NCBI RefSeq assembly: GCF_024298765.1
Contig: NZ_CP101210.1
Length of the DNA stretch: 64,000 bases
Source: Escherichia coli
GTDB taxonomy: Bacteria > Pseudomonadota > Gammaproteobacteria > Enterobacterales > Enterobacteriaceae
Direction: 5' to 3' (one strand)
Shown here: piece after piece, positions 25,795-55,189 of the stretch
How the letters are laid out: every line of letters begins with the position of its first letter
Numbering within the stretch: the first letter of the stretch is position 1
Made by a program: the position numbers and the translations under genes
Notes under the pieces: generated by a model
Told to the model about the DNA's origin: nothing
The model's database searches: none
What the model saw: the letters and a program-made list of their open reading frames with translations, nothing else

Positions 25795-27031
25795 TGAATA
25801 TTCGATTCTGCTGATTGATGATGATGCTGACGTGCTGGACGCCTACACACAGTTACTTGAACAGTCGGGCTATCGTGTTTTTGCCTGTAACAATCCTTTT
25901 GAGGCGCAGGCGTGGATACAACCAGACTGGCCAGGCATTGTGCTAAGTGATGTGTGTATGCCTGGCTGCTCTGGTATCGATTTGATGATGTTATTCCACC
26001 AGGATGATCAACAGCTCCCCATTCTGCTTATCACCGGGCACGGCGATGTGCCAATGGCAGTTGATGCGGTGAAAAAAGGCGCGTGGGATTTTTTGCAAAA
26101 ACCGGTCGATCCCGGCAAATTGCTTTCTCTGGTTGAAGAGGCACTACGCCAGCGTCAATCAATCATTGCGCGTCGTCAGTATTGCCAACAGACATTGCAG
26201 GTGGAGTTGATAGGGAGAAGTGAATGGATAAATCAGTATCGGCGACGTTTACAGCAGTTGTCTGAGACAGATATTGCCGTCTGGCTCTACGGTGCCCCTG
26301 GCACAGGACGGATGACCGGTGCACGTTATCTGCACCAATTTGGACGTAATGCACAAGGCGAATTTGTCTACCGCGAGCTGACACCAGACAATGCACCACA
26401 GCTTAATGATTTCATTGCGCTGGCTCAGGGGGGAACATTAGTGCTCAGCCATCCTGAACACCTGACGCGTGAACAGCAGTACCATCTGGTTCAGTTACAA
26501 AGCCAGGAACACAGACCTTTTCGCCTGATTGGTATTGGAGACACCTCGCTGGTCGAGCTGGCCGCCAGCAACCATATCATCGCGGAGCTCTATTACTGCT
26601 TTGCAATGACACAAATCGCTTGCCTGCCATTAACTCAACGCCCCGACGATATTGAACCACTGTTTCGCCACTACCTTTGTAAGGCATGTCAACGGCTTAA
26701 CCATCCTGTTCCGGAAGTGGGAAAAGAGATGTTCAAAGAGATGATGCGCCGCATGTGGCCAAATAATGTGCGAGAGCTGGCCAATGCAGCAGAACTGTTT
26801 ACTGTAGGAATATTACCGCTGGCAGAAACAGCAAACCCGTTGATGCACGTCGGAACCCCGGCACCGCTTGACAGGCGAGTGGAGGACGCTGAGCGACAGA
26901 TAATCACAGAGGCGCTTAATATCCATCAGGGGCGTATCAATGAGGTTGCTGAATATTTACAAATCCCGCGGAAAAAACTCTATCTCAGAATGAAAAAATA
27001 CGGTCTTAGCAAGGAGCATTATAAAAATTAA
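25775..27031 (+). CDS. pgtA: NtrC-family response regulator PgtA-like
   Basis: Receiver domain (ILLIDDDADVL...D...KPV), degenerate AAA+ central domain (GAPGTGR), C-terminal Fis-type HTH; alternative start ATG 25784. Confidence 0.75.
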   Translation: MWKMLSSEYSILLIDDDADVLDAYTQLLEQSGYRVFACNNPFEAQAWIQPDWPGIVLSDVCMPGCSGIDLMMLFHQDDQQLPILLITGHGDVPMAVDAVKKGAWDFLQKPVDPGKLLSLVEEALRQRQSIIARRQYCQQTLQVELIGRSEWINQYRRRLQQLSETDIAVWLYGAPGTGRMTGARYLHQFGRNAQGEFVYRELTPDNAPQLNDFIALAQGGTLVLSHPEHLTREQQYHLVQLQSQEHRPFRLIGIGDTSLVELAASNHIIAELYYCFAMTQIACLPLTQRPDDIEPLFRHYLCKACQRLNHPVPEVGKEMFKEMMRRMWPNNVRELANAAELFTVGILPLAETANPLMHVGTPAPLDRRVEDAERQIITEALNIHQGRINEVAEYLQIPRKKLYLRMKKYGLSKEHYKN

Positions 27032-48189: not shown

Positions 48190-49340
48190 GCTGGACCAGC
48201 CCCTTGAAACGCCAGATAGTGGATGTATCTTAAAATAAGAGACAGGCTTGGATATATGTCTGACACTGGTTCTAATTTTGAGATGACTGGAACTTTGCCG
48301 GGGCTGGAGCTTCGTAAACGTAAAACTCCTCAGGAAAAAATTGGCATTATTCAGCAGACAATGGAGCCTGGCATGGCGGTGTCACATGTGGCGCGTTTGC
48401 GTTGTATTCAGCCCTGCCTGTTGTTTAAGTGGAAAAACAATCTCTGGAAGGAAGTCTCACTGCTGTTGCTTCAGGAGAGGGTGTCGTTCCTGCCTCAGAA
48501 CTGCCTGCCGCTATAAAACAAATAAAAGAGTTACAGCTCTTGCTGGGTAAAAAACCATGGAAGTTTAGATCCTCAAAGAAGTGGTGGAGTATGCGCAATC
48601 GCGAAAATGGATAGCGCATGTGCCCTTGTTACCTTCGGACAAGGAATAGCCCCGGTAAGCCGTGTTCTGGGCGATACTCAGGCGGCAGTCCCTAAATGAA
48701 GGACTACCGTTAGTGAATGCAAAGCGCGTTTACCGGATAATGAGCGAAAATATCCTGTTGTTACATGACAAACCATCACGACTGCAGCGGGAACATAAAG
48801 GCCGAATATCGGTAAGGAAAGCGACCAGCGTTGATGTTCTGATGGCTTTGAGTTCGGTTGCGATGATGGCGAAAAAGTCCGGGTTACGTTCGCCCTGGAC
48901 TGTTGCGATCGTGAAGCTATCGACTGGGCATCCAATACGGGAGGTTACAATAAAGCGACAGTGCAGGATGTGATGTTAGGAGCGATAGAAAAACTCTTTG
49001 GCGATAAAGTACCGGAACAGTCCATCCGGTGGTTGACAGATAACGGTTCAGCGTATAGAGCGCATGAAACACGGCAGTTCGCCAGAGAGTTGGATCTGGA
49101 GCCCTGCACAACGGCAATCAGCAGCTCTCAGAGTAATGGAATGGCAGAAAGGTTAGTGAAAACGATGAAGGAAGACTACATTGCGTTCATACCGAAACCG
49201 AATGTAATAACGGCATTGCATAACCTTGCATAGGCGTTCGAGAATTACAATGAGAACCACCCGCATAGTGCGTTAGGTTATCTCTCACCACGGGAATATC
49301 GATGTCAGCGGATAACGTCACCTTAGATGTAGCAGTTGCC
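48190..49340 (+). mobile_element. Degenerate IS2-group (IS3 family) element; orfA and orfB broken into at least four frames
   Basis: Fragments RKRKTPQEKIGIIQQTMEPGMAVSHVAR..., [77 protein letters not shown]...[32 protein letters not shown] parallel IS2 InsC/InsD at ~60 percent identity. Confidence 0.6.
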
Positions 49341-49448
49341 AAACAGTGACTCAAGGGCAGGCTTACCGCATACGCTGACACTTAGCTGATCGACAGAATA
49401 TTATTAACAGTTCATCACTGAACGCTACATAATCAGAGTTGCATAAAT

Positions 49449-49471
49449 AAAATGTTATGTTATAACATTTT
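49449..49471. promoter_or_regulatory. Near-consensus Zur box overlapping the promoter of the TonB-dependent receptor gene
   Basis: AAAATGTTATG-T-TATAACATTTT: 11-bp arms, 10 of 11 positions palindromic; matches the gammaproteobacterial Zur consensus GAAATGTTATANTATAACATTTC at ~21 of 23 positions; 22 bp upstream of ATG 49493. Confidence 0.6.
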
Positions 49472-49492
49472 AATACCAACATATGTTTTCGA

Positions 49493-51463
49493 ATGTATAT
49501 GAATGTAATCAGAACTGTCATTTGTACATTAATTATAGTCCCGGTGGGACTACAGGCAGCGACCAGTCATTCTTCTATGGCTAAAGATACAATCACCATT
49601 GTCGCGACAGGAAATCAGAACACGGTATTTGAAACGCCGTCGATGGTCAGTGTCGTCACGAATGACACACCGTGGAGTCAGAATGCGGTTACATCGGCCG
49701 GCATGCTGAAAGGTGTTGCCGGTCTCAGCCAGACTGGTGCAGGACGGACCAATGGGCAGACCTTTAATCTACGCGGCTATGACAAAAGCGGGGTACTTGT
49801 TCTTGTTGACGGCGTCCGCCAACTCAGTGACATGGCAAAAAGCAGTGGCACTTATCTGGATCCGGCTCTTGTCAAACGTATCGAAGTTGTCCGCGGGCCA
49901 AACTCCAGTCTGTACGGCAGTGGCGGGCTGGGAGGTGTAGTGGACTTCAGAACTGCCGATGCAGCAGATTTCCTTCCCCCCGGAGAGACAAACGGTTTAA
50001 GTCTGTGGGGAAATATTGCCAGTGGTGACCACAGCACAGGCTCGGGGCTCACCTGGTTCGGTAAAACCGGAAAAACAGATGCGCTCCTTTCTGTCATTAT
50101 GCGTAAAAGAGGTAATATCTATCAAAGTGATGGTGAGCGCGCACCTAACAAGGAAAAACCTGCAGCCCTGTTTGCGAAAGGCTCTGTCGGTATAACAGAC
50201 AGTAACAAAGCAGGTGCCAGCTTGCGTCTCTACCGGAATAACACCACTGAACCGGGCAATCCCACTCAGACACATGGTGACAGCGGCCTGCGTGACAGAA
50301 AAACAGTACAAAATGACGTACAGTTCTGGTACCAGTACGCTCCTGTGGATAACAGCCTCATCAATGTAAAGTCAACGTTATATCTCAGTGATATCACTAT
50401 CAAGACAAACGGTCACAACAAAACGGCAGAATGGAGAAACAACAGAACCTCCGGTGTTAATGTTGTCAACAGGAGTCATACTCTGATTTTTCCGGGAGCC
50501 CATCAGTTAAGTTATGGCGCTGAATATTACCGTCAGCAGCAGAAGCCAGAAGGCTCTGCCACACTATATCCGGAAGGAAATATTGACTTTACATCGTTGT
50601 ATTTCCAGGATGAAATGACAATGAAAAGCTACCCTGTTAACATTATCGTCGGTTCCCGCTATGACCGGTACAAGAGCTTCAATCCCCGTGCCGGAGAACT
50701 GAAAGCCGAACGCCTGTCCCCAAGGGCGGCGATTTCAGTCTCACCGACAGACTGGCTGATGATGTACGGCTCCATATCCTCTGCATTCCGAGCGCCCACA
50801 ATGGCAGAAATGTACAGGGATGATGTACATTTTTACCGCAAGGGTAAACCCAATTACTGGGTTCCTAACCTTAATCTGAAACCAGAAAATAACATCACCC
50901 GTGAGATTGGCGCAGGTATTCAACTGGATGGCCTGCTTACAGACAATGACCGGCTGCAGTTAAAAGGCGGATATTTCGGAACGGATGCCAGAAACTATAT
51001 TGCCACACGCGTGGATATGAAACGGATGCGTTCTTATTCTTATAATGTATCCCGGGCCCGTATCTGGGGATGGGATATGCAGGGAAATTACCAGTCTGAT
51101 TATGTTGACTGGGTGCTTTCTTATAACCGGACGGAAAGTATGGATGCCAGCAGCAGGGAATGGCTGGGCTCCGGCAATCCTGACACACTTATCAGTGACA
51201 TCAGCATACCTGTTGGTCATAGAGGCGTTTATGCCGGATGGCGTGCTGAACTTTCAGCATCAGCCACGCATGTGAAAAAAGGCGACTCCTATCAGGCTGG
51301 CTATGCCATACATTCCTTTTCACTGTCTTATAAGCCTGTAAGTGTTAAAGGCTTTGAGGCGTCAGTAACTCTGGATAATGCCTTCAACAAGCTTGCCATG
51401 AATGGCAAAGGTGTGCCGCTTTCAGGCCGAACTGTCAGTCTTTATACCCGTTATCAGTGGTAA
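49493..51463 (+). CDS. TonB-dependent outer-membrane receptor, heme-receptor-like (ChuA/ShuA/ZnuD relatives)
   Basis: 656 aa, signal peptide, plug motifs (VLVLVDGVRQ, RIEVVRGPNSSLYGSGGLGGVV), barrel ending ...YTRYQW; ~50 percent identical to ChuA by eye in conserved blocks. Confidence 0.85.
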   Translation: MYMNVIRTVICTLIIVPVGLQAATSHSSMAKDTITIVATGNQNTVFETPSMVSVVTNDTPWSQNAVTSAGMLKGVAGLSQTGAGRTNGQTFNLRGYDKSGVLVLVDGVRQLSDMAKSSGTYLDPALVKRIEVVRGPNSSLYGSGGLGGVVDFRTADAADFLPPGETNGLSLWGNIASGDHSTGSGLTWFGKTGKTDALLSVIMRKRGNIYQSDGERAPNKEKPAALFAKGSVGITDSNKAGASLRLYRNNTTEPGNPTQTHGDSGLRDRKTVQNDVQFWYQYAPVDNSLINVKSTLYLSDITIKTNGHNKTAEWRNNRTSGVNVVNRSHTLIFPGAHQLSYGAEYYRQQQKPEGSATLYPEGNIDFTSLYFQDEMTMKSYPVNIIVGSRYDRYKSFNPRAGELKAERLSPRAAISVSPTDWLMMYGSISSAFRAPTMAEMYRDDVHFYRKGKPNYWVPNLNLKPENNITREIGAGIQLDGLLTDNDRLQLKGGYFGTDARNYIATRVDMKRMRSYSYNVSRARIWGWDMQGNYQSDYVDWVLSYNRTESMDASSREWLGSGNPDTLISDISIPVGHRGVYAGWRAELSASATHVKKGDSYQAGYAIHSFSLSYKPVSVKGFEASVTLDNAFNKLAMNGKGVPLSGRTVSLYTRYQW

Positions 51464-51481
51464 CCTCTCAGGAAATAAATC

Positions 51482-52273
51482 ATGATGAAAAATACAGGCT
51501 ATATCTTAGCTCTTTGTCTGACAGCATCGGGGCATGTCCTGGCCCATGATGTCTGGATTACCGGCAAACAGGCAGAGAACAACGTTATCGCAGAGATTGG
51601 TTATGGTCATAATTTCCCCTCAAAGGGCACGATTCCTGACAGAAGGGATTTCTTTGAAACTCCCCGGCTTTATAACGGGAAAGAGACAATAACGCTGAAG
51701 CCAACATCCACGGATTATGTCTATAAAATTGAGTCTGCAGGCAACGGTAATAGCTACGTTCTGTCAACGAAAATGAAACCGGGATACTGGTCGAGAACCT
51801 CGTCAGGATGGAAGCCTGTCAGCCGGGAGGGCAGAAATGATGTGGCATACTGTGAGTTTGTGACTAAATATGCAAAATCTTTTATTCCTGGTGAACAGCA
51901 GATGCCAGCACAACTCTATCAGTATCCAATAGGGGATGAGCTTGAAATCATTCCGTTATCCGATATCAGTCGTTTCGGTGAAGATGTGAAGCTGAAAGTT
52001 CTGTATAAAACTTCCCCGCTTGCCGGAGCCACTCTGGAGCTTGACTCTGTCAGTTATCTGAAATCATCCCGCCATACTCATGCGGCAGAGCATAAACATT
52101 CGGCTCATAAAGCAGAACTTACCTTTGTAAGTAATGAGGACGGTATCATCACTGTACCCTCCCTTCATGTCGGGCAATGGCTAGCTAAAGTCAAAAATAA
52201 GAAAGTATTTCAGGACAAAAACCTGTGTGATGAAACTGTCGATGTGGCAACCTTAAGCTTCTCCCGAAATTAA
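51482..52273 (+). CDS. Secreted protein with His-rich segment, co-transcribed with the receptor (family unassigned, possibly DUF4198-like)
   Basis: Signal peptide MMKNTGYILALCLTASGHVLA; His cluster SSRHTHAAEHKHSAHK; 18-bp spacing after the receptor stop. Confidence 0.45.
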   Translation: MMKNTGYILALCLTASGHVLAHDVWITGKQAENNVIAEIGYGHNFPSKGTIPDRRDFFETPRLYNGKETITLKPTSTDYVYKIESAGNGNSYVLSTKMKPGYWSRTSSGWKPVSREGRNDVAYCEFVTKYAKSFIPGEQQMPAQLYQYPIGDELEIIPLSDISRFGEDVKLKVLYKTSPLAGATLELDSVSYLKSSRHTHAAEHKHSAHKAELTFVSNEDGIITVPSLHVGQWLAKVKNKKVFQDKNLCDETVDVATLSFSRN

Positions 52274-52283
52274 TAATACTATT

Positions 52284-52307
52284 CCTGCCCTGTAATTTAC
52301 GGGCAGG
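52284..52307 (+). terminator. Possible terminator hairpin after the receptor operon
   Basis: CCTGCCC-TGTAATTTAC-GGGCAGG. Confidence 0.3.
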
Positions 52308-52573: not shown

Positions 52574-54145
52574 TTACTGAGAGCTCAGATCAACTTTCCA
52601 GGGCAACAGATCGCGTACCCGGTTTGCCGGCCAGTCCTGGATATGTTCAATGACGTAACGCAGCCACTTTTCTGGCTCCACATTGTTCAGACGGCATGTG
52701 CCGATCAGCGAGTACAACACCGCCGCATGTTCACCACCGCTGTCGGAACCCGCGAACATCCAGTTTTTCCGGCCTACGGCCACTCCCCGTAAGGCGTTCT
52801 CTGCGATGTTGTTGTCGATTTCCACCCAGCCATTACTGCAGTACACGTTCAGTGCATCCCACTGTTTCAGCAGGTATGCGAACGCTTTTGCCGTATCTGA
52901 GTGACGCGACAGTGTTTTCATCTGTTGCTGTATCCAGTCATACAGTGACTGCATCAGTGGCGCGGCTCTGGCTTTTCTTGCCGCCAGACGCTGTTCTGCT
53001 GAACAGCCCCGGACCTCTGCCTCGATGGCATACAGTTCACCGATACGCTGCAGGGCTTCCGTGGTGATGTCGGTGGGCGCTCTTGCATGCACATCGTGGA
53101 TTTTTCTCCGGGCATGAGCCATACACGCGGCTTCCGTTATTCTGCCGGATTCGTATAACACCCGGTAACCACCGTAAGCATCGGCCTGAAGCACACCGCT
53201 GTAACCGGCCAGGTGATTTTGTGGATGGATACCTTTCCGGTCCGGACTGTACGCGAACCAGACCGCCGGGGGCATCTGTGAACCGGCGTTGCGATCATCA
53301 CGGACGTAGACCCACAGCCGGGCTGTCCGGGTTTTACCGCTGCCCGGCTCCTGGACCGGGACGGGGATATCATCGGCATGGACTTTACCGGGCATCAGCA
53401 CATACTGGCGCAGGACGTCATACAGCGGCTCCAGCAGTTCAGCAACAGCACCTGTCCAGCGCCCCAGTGTGGCACGGCTCAGCTCCACGCCCTGGCGACG
53501 GTATATTTCTGACTGGCGGTATAACGGCAGATGGTCTGCATATTTCCCGGTGACAACATGGGCCAGAAGCCCCGCTCCGGCATAACTGCGTGCAATGGGT
53601 TTTGAAGGCACCGGTGCCTGCACGATATGGTCGCACCGGCAACAGGCCTGTTTCGGACGTTGTGTTTCGATAACCTTAAAGGCACTGCTGATAAGCTCCA
53701 GTTGCTCTGACACATCACATCCCAGTGGACTGAGTTCACCACCACAGGCCGGACAGCATTCCTCTTCCGGCCGGATGACCCGGGGTTCACGGGGAAGTGA
53801 AGCCGGTAACGGTTTACGGGCTGAAGACTGGCGCAGGGGGGATGGCAGTACCGGGTCATATTGCTCACCCAGCGTTTCTGCCATTTCTTCCTGAAGTGCG
53901 CTGATTCGCTCCTGTGCTTCCTGTATCTGCCGTTCGGTTTTTGCGCGAAGTTTTTCTGAGCTTTTACCGAACTGCATACGCTGCAGTTTCGCAACCAGCG
54001 CCTTCAGCCGGTTGATTTCGGAAGCATAAGCCGCCACCCGCTGTGAGAGCAGGCGGTTGTATTCGGCCATCTGGCGGATGGTGTCCTGTTGCGTCTGCAA
54101 CAGTGCCTGCAGGCGGGCATTCTCATGAGCAAGTGAGGTGTCCAT
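52574..54145 (-). CDS. IS66-family transposase TnpC
   Basis: 523 aa with N-terminal coiled coil, CCPACGGEL zinc motif and DDE-type core. Confidence 0.85.
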
Positions 54146-54164
54146 ATCCTCACTTTACAACGGG

Positions 54165-54512
54165 TTATATACGGATTCCAGCGCGTTCCGTTCGTTTCGG
54201 GTGCTTCCAGTCGATGCCCTCGAGAAGCATGGATAACTGAGCCGGAGTAAGGTGCACCTTGCCGTCACGGGTGACTGGCCAGACGAAGCGGCCCCGCTCC
54301 AGGCGTTTGGTGAAGAGGCACAGTCCGTCACTGTCAGCCCACAACACTTTTATCTGGTCACCCCGGCGTCCGCGGAAGATGAACAGGTGTCCGGAGAACG
54401 GGTCATCCTTCAGGACGTTCTGAACTTTTGAGGCCAGGCCGTTAAAGCCATTTCGCATATCGGTGATACCTGCAACCAGCCAGATACGCGAACCTGCAGG
54501 GAGAGATATCAT
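54165..54512 (-). CDS. IS66-family TnpB (orf2)
   Basis: 115 aa, conserved IS66 orf2 (MISLPAGSRIWLVAGITDMRNGFNGLA...). Confidence 0.85.
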   Translation of the reverse strand: MISLPAGSRIWLVAGITDMRNGFNGLASKVQNVLKDDPFSGHLFIFRGRRGDQIKVLWADSDGLCLFTKRLERGRFVWPVTRDGKVHLTPAQLSMLLEGIDWKHPKRTERAGIRI

Positions 54513-55189
54513 CAGTGGCTGCTCCCTTTTATTTCGCGGATAAGTGTCTGTAATAACGCCGGCGTCAGTTTACCTTTAAGCCTGAGAGTTCCGGCCGGCA
54601 GAACCAGCTCACAACACAGACTGTCGGACGGTGTATTTATCTGCTCTGGTTCCTGTGCGGGGGCCGGGATTTTATTATCCGGCTCCGGCGTTAACGTCAC
54701 GGGAAGCAGTGCCGGCATATTTTTTCCGGAAGGCAGCAGGCCACCTTTCCGGTATTGATGGCGCCAGTTGAAGAGCAGGTTATCGTTGATTCCGTTTTCC
54801 CGGGCGATCTGCGCCACACAGGCTCCGGGCTGCAGTGACTGCTCCACTAAGGCGATTTTAAACTCATAAGGGAAGTTGGGCCGCCGGGGACGTTTTTTTA
54901 CCACGGGGGCTTCGGATATAACGGTGCTTTCAGGACGTACGACTGGTACCGTGGAAAATTGTCCGTAAAGGCAGGCATCAAGTTCCTGCTCCGACATGCC
55001 TGCGGGCAAAGGCCACGAAAGGCCAGCTCTCCGAAAGCGCACGAACATACTACAAACTGTTGATTTTGATACACCCAGGCGACGCCCGGCCACAACCCGG
55101 GGTAAATGTTCTTCAAAGTGAAGACGTAAAGCTTCAGTGATCCAGGTCCGGTGTTTCATACGATAGTGTCCATTAAAAATGATGGACAT
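54512..55189 (-). CDS. IS66-family TnpA-like (orf1) with long N-terminal HTH extension
   Basis: 225 aa; C-terminal half identical to 19866..20516. Confidence 0.6.
   Translation of the reverse strand: MSIIFNGHYRMKHRTWITEALRLHFEEHLPRVVAGRRLGVSKSTVCSMFVRFRRAGLSWPLPAGMSEQELDACLYGQFSTVPVVRPESTVISEAPVVKKRPRRPNFPYEFKIALVEQSLQPGACVAQIARENGINDNLLFNWRHQYRKGGLLPSGKNMPALLPVTLTPEPDNKIPAPAQEPEQINTPSDSLCCELVLPAGTLRLKGKLTPALLQTLIREIKGSSH

Follow-up and report, generated by a model that had tools for sequence, protein, structure and literature searches.

The 64-kb window, i.e., the whole stretch of Escherichia coli DNA that was analysed, contains two co-oriented genes preceded by a palindromic sequence (Table 1). 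The first gene codes for a TonB-dependent receptor, and its start codon agrees with that given by RefSeq. The second, which begins 18 nt after the receptor stop codon, codes for a secreted protein of the DUF4198 family. The histidine cluster that the sequence-only reading had noticed in this downstream product is SSRHTHAAEHKHSAHK, at residues 195–210, and the His-rich loop comprises residues 198–209. The same reading had described a near-perfect 23-bp palindrome located 22 bp from the receptor start codon. The palindrome is indeed there, but the spacing turned out to be 21 nt. It had also placed insertion sequence relics on both sides of the pair, and these are an IS2-like remnant upstream and an IS66-family element downstream.

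Table 1. Features of the receptor/DUF4198 locus (positions refer to the 64-kb window).
Feature	Position	Strand	Basis and details
Degenerate IS2-like (IS3 family) transposase relic, upstream	48283..49326	+	RefSeq: frameshifted DDE-type transposase with internal stop; ORF fragments
Mobile unit (operator and both genes)	49410..52297	+	Stretch about 94.8% identical to IncF-type plasmid copies
Candidate promoter overlapped by the operator	49439..49466	+	-35 TTGCAT 49439-49444, TG 49458-49459, -10 TATAAC 49461-49466; inferred by reading the sequence
Putative Zur operator	49449..49472	.	23-bp palindrome 49449-49471 overlapping 20-mer TGTTATGTTATAACATTTTA at 49453-49472
TonB-dependent receptor, 656 aa, ChuA/ShuA paralogue	49493..51463	+	Pfam Plug and TonB_dep_Rec barrel domains; TIGR01785; PDB matches; alignment, NJ tree
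Secreted DUF4198 protein, 263 aa	51482..52273	+	Pfam PF10670, Zcp match, AF2 model and Foldseek, clade alignment
Possible weak terminator	52284..52307	+	7-bp G+C-rich inverted repeat CCTGCCC, 10 nt, GGGCAGG; inferred by reading the sequence
IS66-family element (ISCro1-type tnpC, tnpB, tnpA), downstream	52574..55189	-	RefSeq annotation and ORFs

The palindrome is composed of the arms AAAATGTTATG and TATAACATTTT separated by a single T, with 10 of the 11 arm positions being complementary. The overlapping 20-mer shows one mismatch to the structure-based EcZur pattern TGWNAYRWTATAWYRTNWCA, as do the operators of ykgM and pliG, and the site matches RNNNYRNNRYNNYRNNNY with zero mismatches. Within the window, this locus is the only one having two or fewer mismatches to TGWNAYRWTATAWYRTNWCA (in two overlapping frames; 0.14 expected). 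Scoring the site against the known operators, a check proposed earlier, gave 23.8 bits with a matrix made from four K-12 operators alone, i.e., inside the range of 19.9–25.1 bits that the K-12 operators themselves reach on the same kind of matrix in leave-one-out scoring. The next independent site in the window scores 13.2 bits, and pattern and matrix scans of the 64 kb, including the region upstream of the c-type lysozyme inhibitor gene, reveal no further Zur site. The 16-bp core TGTTATGTTATAACAT is identical to that of the hlyII Zur site of strain J96, to which Zur binding was proven by EMSA, and 15 bp are identical in the ykgM operator of K-12. A scan of the window for the consensus Fur box, in turn, finds no match when up to three mismatches are allowed. 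The locus shares the 20-bp dimer-of-dimers pattern with the E. coli Zur operators (ykgM/L31p, zinT, znuC, pliG, and J96 hlyII) but differs from them in its target, since the operon behind it is accessory and mobile and encodes an outer-membrane receptor. No outer-membrane receptor is among the members of the K-12 Zur regulon described by Gilston et al. 2014.

The same gene pair is preceded by a Zur box with 0–2 mismatches in seven lineages whose flanks are otherwise unrelated. The box is conserved in IncF, STEC639, Klebsiella, Salmonella, Providencia, and metagenome alleles, the IncF allele being a perfect 20-bp palindrome. The closest approach to a Fur box within 300 bp upstream differs at 7–8 of 19 positions in these seven lineages. 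All three sampled homologues that keep the plug heme ligand His86 behave differently: they are part of hemP-hemR-hemS-hemTUV operons, each with a Fur box of 2–3 mismatches, and their best Zur match has at least 5 mismatches. Fur control of the pair was considered and is rejected. As the region is A+T-rich and adjoins IS debris, one could argue that the palindrome, an A+T-rich repeat at an IS junction, arose by chance or is a vestige and that the genes are expressed regardless of zinc. However, the palindrome belongs to the plasmid-shared segment and not to the IS relic, it is kept in seven lineages despite divergent or unrelated flanks, and none of 200 shuffles of the window reaches its score, so that this explanation appears very improbable. 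Regulation of the pair by Zur, as predicted from these sequence features, is very likely. The earlier preference for Zur over Fur gains from the operator pattern, the hlyII-identical core, the matrix score, and the Zur box of the divergent lineages.

The position of the operator relative to transcription depends on the promoter chosen. The candidate promoter listed in Table 1 would set the operator at about -20 to -1; the operators of znuC and zinT are located at -22 to -3 and -23 to -4, respectively. A consensus promoter scan picks another candidate, TTAACA at 49404–49409 with CATAAT at 49428–49433, which would set the operator just 3′ of the transcription start, at about +8 to +31. Beyond the second gene, the inverted repeat that may serve as a weak terminator begins 10 nt past the stop codon. 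It has no T-run and was not flagged by a terminator scan.

Only the segment designated as the mobile unit is common to hundreds of IncF plasmids, which bears out the earlier view of the pair as horizontally acquired cargo. The pair is present in 1313 of 5426 complete E. coli genomes, about a quarter, and on 762 PLSDB plasmids. These are mostly conjugative IncF plasmids of human clinical isolates, and Klebsiella plasmids carry the pair too. The two genes, 18 nt apart, travel together with the operator, which speaks for an operon. No paper naming the E. coli pair was found in the openly searchable literature.

The receptor belongs by sequence to the heme receptor lineage, in agreement with the heme-receptor-like barrel assumed earlier. 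The heme/hemoglobin receptor HMM TIGR01785 gives it 414.1 bits (cut-off 316.85), the ChuA- and ShuA-type structures 9dhe and 3fhh match it with E-values of 1e-166 and 1e-162, respectively, and the identity to ChuA is 42% over the full length. Like ChuA, ShuA, and HemR, it has a TonB box, FRAP/NPNL-type boxes (invariant across its clade), and an equivalent of ShuA His420. The latter is H446, located in FRAPTMAEMYRDDVHF...VPNLNL and invariant in 113/113 aligned sequences. At the same time, the alignment and NJ tree place the receptor in a separate monophyletic clade (n = 8). The plug heme ligand His86 (ShuA numbering) is K116 in the receptor; it is replaced in 8/8 clade members (by Lys in seven) and kept in 105/105 ChuA/HemR-type homologues. 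The plug-apex motif that ends at this position reads M-[A/D]-[K/I] in all eight members vs. TGH in the 105 others. The substitutions T84M, N416R, and S422Y are invariant in the clade, and the clade-specific changes cluster at both heme-ligand sites, beside the plug His86 and beside the retained loop-7 His. Further differences from ChuA/ShuA/HemR are the Zur box in place of a Fur box and the DUF4198 partner in place of hemP/hemS/hemTUV. Heme-utilisation genes (hemP/S/TUV, chuS/TUV) are not linked to the receptor or to the clade loci inspected.

The parallel drawn earlier with ZnuD (TdfJ) of Neisseria meningitidis holds as an analogy and not as family membership. ZnuD is a precedent for receptor-mediated zinc entry through the outer membrane, and what the present protein would share with it is the TonB-dependent receptor type, expression in zinc limitation, and Zur control. 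In the family HMM check, the receptor passes TIGR01785 and fails the ZnuD model NF038289, reaching 46.7 bits where the cut-off is 950, with a match in the plug domain only. Loop 3 of ZnuD is His/Asp-rich and held by two cysteines, whereas the mature receptor contains no cysteine and no His/Asp-rich loop; none of its 12-residue stretches has more than 2 His, and the total is 10 His vs. 9 in ChuA. Unlike ZnuD, it is paired with a DUF4198 gene with which it is predicted to be co-transcribed. Membership in the ZnuD family is rejected on these grounds. The receptor has no zinc-type motif, which speaks against zinc as its cargo.

The ancestry of the receptor raises the question of whether heme or another metalloporphyrin remains the cargo, with the receptor under Zur control acting as a zinc-sparing bypass and the DUF4198 protein as a co-expressed, independently useful periplasmic zinc buffer. 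The porphobilinogen synthase HemB of E. coli is a zinc enzyme, so the import of ready-made tetrapyrrole would relieve a zinc-dependent step. The TIGR01785 score (414 bits vs. 317), the full-length likeness to ChuA, and the clade-invariant boxes and His420 equivalent agree with such a role, as do the substitutions at both heme-ligand sites, which bring Met, Lys, and Tyr, typical heme axial ligands. To judge from the sequence, T84M, N416R, S422Y, and Lys at position 86 together with His446 would suit the axial ligation of a tetrapyrrole better than the coordination of Zn2+. On the other hand, His86 is lost throughout the clade, the Fur box is absent, and the pair has no hemS, hemTUV, or chuS-type genes, which the sampled His86-type genes do have. 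To our knowledge, heme import under Zur control is without precedent. In sum, heme as the retained cargo seems fairly unlikely. The more specific version, in which a ChuA-derived receptor passed from Fur to Zur control and acquired a new set of heme-pocket ligands (Met, Lys, and Tyr beside the retained His) to import heme or zinc-porphyrin and bypass HemB, is a doubtful proposition as well.

The partner protein matches Pfam PF10670 at 9.4e-25. It is a homologue of Zcp of N. gonorrhoeae (NGO1049, PDB 9MHI–9MHO), a Zur-regulated periplasmic protein for which zinc binding was proven crystallographically (Kd 0.31 μM). The match to Zcp (9MHI) has an E-value of 3e-22 at an identity of only 24%. The AF2 model of the partner (pLDDT 81.8) shows a three-layer beta-sandwich. 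The top Foldseek matches are 9MHJ/9MHL and the Ni-bound DUF4198 protein 9GCB, all with a probability of 1.00; the TM scores are 0.72–0.83 for Zcp and 0.65/0.79 for 9GCB. Cys124 and Cys249 are invariant and correspond to the cysteines of the Zcp disulfide C127–C250. The two proteins have the Pfam family, fold, disulfide cysteines, secretion, and a Zur box in common. The earlier idea of a His-rich metal-binding partner is strengthened by this homology, and metal binding by the partner itself is putative.

The likely metal site differs from that of Zcp. A Zcp-type zinc triad was considered and is rejected: the partner has no His at the corresponding positions, H29/H31 align with a K-Q-A segment and gaps, and H142 with a gap that follows Glu. 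Where the partner has His43 of the GYGH motif, Zcp has Glu, and the internal His-rich loop is found in the partner, which fits neither Zcp cluster 1 (triad) nor cluster 2 (C-terminal His tail). The predicted signal cleavage between VLA and HDVW obeys the -3/-1 rule and would leave His22 at the N-terminus; this motif is invariant in 9/9 aligned sequences. An N-terminal His after signal-peptide cleavage is reported for 79% of the DUF4198 family. The N-terminal His and His43 are invariant in the clade and face each other in the hairpin register of the AF2 model. This arrangement resembles the site of IsDUF4198 from Ideonella sakaiensis (PDB 9GCB), made up of the N-terminal His and His18, i.e., a second His about 20 residues on. 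Since phmmer and the clade profile aligned only the central part of the partner with 9GCB, the correspondence of His22/His43 to His1/His18 rests on the hairpin register and the likeness of the folds. Genes of the DUF4198 family often lie beside TonB receptors; IsDUF4198 itself has 17% identity to the partner, prefers nickel, stands in a NikR-type context, and is without the His-rich loop. On sequence grounds, the partner would extend the DUF4198/Zcp family by a third metal-site architecture.

The family also informs on what the partner may do. Zinc import does not require Zcp, whose proposed role is the buffering of periplasmic zinc, so the partner need not take the cargo of the receptor. Zinc import proceeding without Zcp is compatible with heme as the cargo; against this, many other bacteria have DUF4198 proteins adjoining metal-responsive TonB receptors, which points to the two working together. 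Zcp-type relatives in Neisseriaceae often carry Zur boxes of their own and are solitary genes, a ChuA-like receptor being absent within 4 kb. Scanning species-representative genomes with a DUF4198 profile returned mostly such Neisseriaceae genes and a single enterobacterial pair, in Salmonella diarizonae, which makes the clade appear sporadic and accessory. The lack of the Zcp triad, together with the nickel preference of the characterised N-terminal-His DUF4198 protein, speaks against zinc as the cargo.

It is conceivable that another metal acting as a zinc stand-in (cobalt, nickel, or copper) or a metal-metallophore complex is imported. IsDUF4198, the sole characterised DUF4198 protein with an N-terminal His site and structurally the closest of that kind, has a Kd of 18 nM for Ni, and both Zn and Co stabilise it too. 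Cu, Co, and Ni were also taken up by Zcp crystals, and Zur-regulated receptor clusters in P. aeruginosa are reported to handle cobalt-pyochelin. Nevertheless, Zur is the regulatory signal in every lineage, a NikR-type context is absent, and the mobile pair has no metallophore synthesis genes. As far as is known, most characterised Zur-controlled TonB receptors carry zinc. Import of another metal thus appears quite unlikely.

We propose that the locus is a Zur-repressed bicistronic zinc-starvation operon that moves as a 2.9-kb cassette. At sufficient zinc, two Zn-Zur dimers would occupy the operator over the promoter or the transcription start and shut transcription off; a shortage of zinc would allow the receptor and partner genes both to be expressed. 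This regulatory step, repression by Zn-Zur and derepression under zinc scarcity, seems highly probable in its own right as far as the sequence can tell. The receptor would be an offshoot of the ChuA/HemR lineage that serves as a TonB-energised gate in the outer membrane, its ligand pocket remodelled by the loss of the plug His86 and by the clade-specific changes beside it and beside the retained loop-7 His. Zinc, either free or bound to or stripped from a carrier, is the most probable transported species. In the periplasm, the DUF4198 beta-sandwich may catch the incoming metal via the His22/His43 pair and the His-rich loop, and then either buffer it or hand it over, the recipient being ZnuA/ZinT-ZnuBC or zinc enzymes of the envelope. 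The whole chain, with zinc as the cargo, has in our estimation about an even chance of being right.

The passage of zinc across the outer membrane of Enterobacteriaceae in host-imposed starvation is an unsettled matter. If zinc is the cargo, the cassette is a candidate outer-membrane zinc route in E. coli; it could add fitness against calprotectin, and the receptor would be a candidate surface-exposed antigen. If the cargo is heme or zinc-porphyrin, the zinc-starvation regulon would extend into tetrapyrrole supply, a function that IncF plasmids of epidemic E. coli would spread. In general, the locus offers a compact natural case of a receptor lineage that appears to have changed its regulator (from Fur to Zur), its partner genes, and the residues of its ligand site together.

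The receptor gene and its co-oriented partner lie behind a palindrome and are bordered by insertion-sequence material on either side (Table). The sequence-only reading described the palindrome, the two ORFs and the IS flanks accurately, as judged by the sequence and the RefSeq annotation; the palindrome does sit near the receptor start, at 21 nt rather than the claimed 22 bp. The spacer between the two genes is 18 nt long and carries an AGGAAA Shine-Dalgarno sequence. The RefSeq names of the genes are generic, 'TonB-dependent receptor domain-containing protein' and 'DUF4198 domain-containing protein', respectively. Directly downstream of the pair, from 52574 to about 58700, there are three IS66-family copies, consecutive or nested, and beyond them lie IS3 and IS91 fragments and a large autotransporter gene from about 60990.

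Table. The receptor-DUF4198 pair, its palindrome and the adjoining mobile elements (window positions)
Feature	Position	Remark
Frameshifted DDE transposase relic	48283-49326	flank of the pair, RefSeq annotation
Palindrome AAAATGTTATG-T-TATAACATTTT	49449-49471	read from sequence
Receptor ORF, 656 aa	49493-51463	starts 21 nt downstream of palindrome
Partner ORF, 263 aa	51482-52273	co-oriented with receptor
IS66-family element	52574-55189	other flank of the pair, RefSeq annotation

Based on the crystal structure of Zur bound to DNA, Gilston et al. described the pattern recognised by E. coli Zur as RNNNYRNNRYNNYRNNNY, with the more specific form TGWNAYRWTATAWYRTNWCA, and listed the K-12 Zur operators znuC, zinT, L31p (ykgM) and pliG, the tightest affinity in their Table 3 being that of the ykgM operator (PMC4219657). 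These four operators, taken from MG1655, served as the comparison set. The 20-mer TGTTATGTTATAACATTTTA (49453-49472) fits the 18-mer pattern exactly; from the 20-mer pattern it departs by a single mismatch, as the ykgM and pliG operators also do. A run of 15 consecutive bases is common to it and the ykgM operator, and one of 16, TGTTATGTTATAACAT, to it and a J96 hlyII promoter oligonucleotide that was shown to bind Zur by EMSA (PMC5916954). With two or fewer mismatches allowed, this is the sole place in the whole window that matches the Zur pattern (in two overlapping frames; 0.14 expected). Scored with a weight matrix made from the four K-12 operators only, the operator reaches 23.8 bits, inside the 19.9-25.1 bits of the true operators left out in turn, in line with the Zur control for which the sequence-only reading had proposed this comparison. 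The runner-up independent position in the window has 13.2 bits on the same matrix, and in 200 shuffles of the window 23.8 bits is never attained. Nowhere in the window is the Fur consensus matched with three or fewer mismatches, and its best match upstream of the receptor gene still has 7 mismatches out of 19. The best-supported step of the proposed mechanism, which we consider highly probable, is that Zn-Zur would bind this operator and that, upon zinc starvation, its control would be lifted and the receptor and DUF4198 genes derepressed.

In one reading of the promoter, a TTGCAT -35 is paired with an extended TGnTATAAC -10 that lies inside the operator; the box would then span about -20 to -1, a position comparable to that in znuC and zinT (PMC5916954). 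A consensus promoter scan favours a different promoter, 30 nt further upstream than this candidate.

Of 5426 complete E. coli genomes, 1313 carry the pair, at 860 chromosomal and 819 plasmid places. In PLSDB it is carried by 762 plasmids (727 from Escherichia and 30 from Klebsiella), 592 of them conjugative. The plasmid copies are homologous to the window over 49410-52297 only, which makes the operator plus the two genes a single mobile unit of 2.9 kb; this joint mobility, together with the 18-nt spacing, suggests that the two genes are co-transcribed. The same receptor-DUF4198 order is found in more distant pairs, with receptor and partner protein identities of 83% and 79% on a Klebsiella plasmid, 51% and 42% in Salmonella enterica (including subsp. 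diarizonae), and 48% and 42% in Providencia rettgeri; in a metagenome contig the receptor is 55% identical. In all these distant pairs the receptor gene is preceded, at 20-60 nt, by a Zur box with 0-2 mismatches, set in unrelated surrounding DNA, and none of the pairs has a Fur box upstream of the receptor. The orthologous loci thus retain the palindrome, the opposite of the absence that the sequence-only reading had named as counter-evidence. The allele on an IncF plasmid of strain MS14387 has the operator TGATATGTTATAACATATCA (locus L002, 6043-6062), whose 20 bp form a perfect palindrome and match the E. coli Zur pattern throughout. It scores 26.9 bits, more than any of the four K-12 operators in the leave-one-out comparison, which may mean tighter repression of the plasmid copy than of the chromosomal one.

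The window corresponds to bases 64001-128000 of chromosomes such as that of E. coli STLEFF_47 (NZ_CP058874.1), and over its full length (1-64000) it is a mosaic genomic island crowded with copies and relics of IS66, IS3, IS2, IS30, IS1 and IS110. The complete ferric-citrate system fecIRABCDE (7023-14568), situated between an IS1 relic and IS3/IS30 relics, is the second mobile system with a TonB receptor in this island. The island also contains an H-NS-family paralogue (1999-2433) and a hemolysin E (hlyE) copy (4899-5783), as well as the phosphoglycerate transport system pgtP with pgtC-pgtB-pgtA (20808-27031), better known from Salmonella, which adjoins a truncated IS66. An orphan ugpB for the sn-glycerol-3-phosphate binding protein (45833-47149), without adjoining ugpAEC, has an IS110 relic on one side and a PemK/MazF toxin fragment on the other. 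A c-type lysozyme inhibitor gene is located at 37424-37762; the g-type inhibitor pliG of K-12 is Zur-regulated, and the pattern and matrix scans found no Zur-box-like site near the c-type gene.

The receptor consists of Plug and barrel domains, passes the curated heme/hemoglobin receptor model TIGR01785, and aligns end to end with the crystal structures of the heme receptors ChuA and ShuA (E 1e-166, 42% identity). Its membership in the ZnuD family was rejected (46.7 bits on the ZnuD model vs. a cut-off of 950). No ZnuD-like zinc-capture features were found in it: the mature protein is cysteine-free, has at most two His per 12-residue window, and contains 10 His in total, compared with 9 in ChuA. 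The two residues of ShuA with a reported role in heme extraction are His86 and His420. Aligned with ChuA, the receptor retains the loop-7 His420 as H446 within FRAP...NPNL-type boxes and has Lys116 in place of the plug-apex His86. Of 113 full-length homologues placed in a neighbour-joining tree, the eight receptors with a Zur box group as a single clade. The His86 position reads M-[A/D]-[K/I] in all eight and T-G-H in all 105 others, while the loop-7 His is present in 113 of 113. The clade has 36 specific invariant substitutions, among them T84M and N88S beside the lost His86, and N416R, S422Y, F426G and T428P around the retained loop-7 His. The ligand pocket is therefore remodelled, not simply degraded. 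Three sampled His86-type homologues (Citrobacter, Buttiauxella, Serratia) all lie in hemP-hemR-hemS-hemT-hemU-hemV operons, each with a Fur box of 2-3 mismatches and a best Zur match of 5 mismatches. Whereas these three combine a Fur box, hemP/S/T/U/V neighbours and His86, the clade has a Zur box, a DUF4198 partner and another residue, and therefore departs from classical heme receptors in regulator, partner genes and ligand residue all together.

This loss of the heme ligand and of adjacent heme-utilisation genes points away from heme, and we regard heme or porphyrin as an unlikely cargo. It is nevertheless a real rival, since His446, which is retained, and the newly gained Met, Lys and Tyr amount to heme-like chemistry; porphyrin import would also be physiologically sensible as a bypass of HemB, a zinc enzyme.

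The partner is a DUF4198 protein (Pfam 9e-25), and its nearest solved structures are those of the gonococcal zinc binder Zcp, 9MHI-9MHO (E 3e-22). Structural comparison of its AlphaFold model (pLDDT 81.8) gives TM 0.72-0.83 with Zcp and TM 0.65/0.79 with the Ni-bound DUF4198 protein of Ideonella sakaiensis (IsDUF4198, 9GCB). Zcp is periplasmic, homodimeric and Zur-regulated, binds one Zn per subunit via H29, H31 and H142 with a Kd of 0.31 μM, and is required for full low-zinc growth but not for zinc import (PMC12663993). The E. coli partner keeps both disulfide cysteines of Zcp and none of the three His of the triad. All eight clade partners instead have an N-terminal His directly past the predicted signal-peptidase site (A|HD[V/I]W), a GYGH His where Zcp has Glu, and a variable yet always His-rich loop, here SSRHTHAAEHKHSAHK, part of which is modelled with low confidence. 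Strands 1 and 2 of the model (24-31 and 34-41) form a hairpin whose register would place His22 opposite His43. This modelled arrangement resembles the metal site of IsDUF4198, where Ni is coordinated by the N-terminal His together with His18 (Kd 18 nM) and Zn and Co are also stabilising (PMC12537917). In the Zcp paper, cluster 1 is defined by the triad and cluster 2 by a C-terminal His tail (PMC12663993); given its different His layout, the partner therefore falls outside both.

In Neisseriaceae, Kingella, Cardiobacterium and Serratia silvae, no ChuA-like receptor was found within 4 kb of the Zcp-type genes, which stand alone, many with their own Zur box; in other bacteria, DUF4198 genes have metal-responsive TonB receptors as neighbours. 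The stand-alone gene of Serratia silvae has its own Zur box TGTTATGTTATAACGTATCT (locus L019, 3909-3928) and encodes an internal His-rich loop DQHEHHGHTHSHAK, but GYGD for GYGH, and looks intermediate between the Zcp and E. coli types. In the 9MHI chain, residues 24-27 show that the crystallised Zcp construct had extra residues ahead of the conserved would-be native N-terminal His. A possible N-terminal His metal site like that of IsDUF4198 could not form in those crystals, so the reported triad is perhaps not the sole site, and native Zcp may have a further one.

Zinc or a complex of it is what most Zur-controlled TonB receptors characterised so far transport. It is likewise the favoured cargo here because of the Zur signal itself and the metal-ion-binding partner, and we give it an even chance; against it, the receptor has no obvious zinc ligand set. 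Another metal, such as Co or Ni as a surrogate, or a metallophore seems a little less likely than heme or porphyrin, and a non-functional pair is considered very improbable.

No description of the pair was found in the full-text literature open to search, which leaves subscription journals and regulon databases outside, and an earlier in silico prediction may exist. As kinds, both TonB receptors and DUF4198 proteins under Zur control are already known. Here they are combined in a putative single operon that joins a ChuA-lineage receptor lacking His86 to a DUF4198 protein of a third architectural type. This combination is also mobile and common in E. coli, and the pair is of interest because it is directly testable in this organism.
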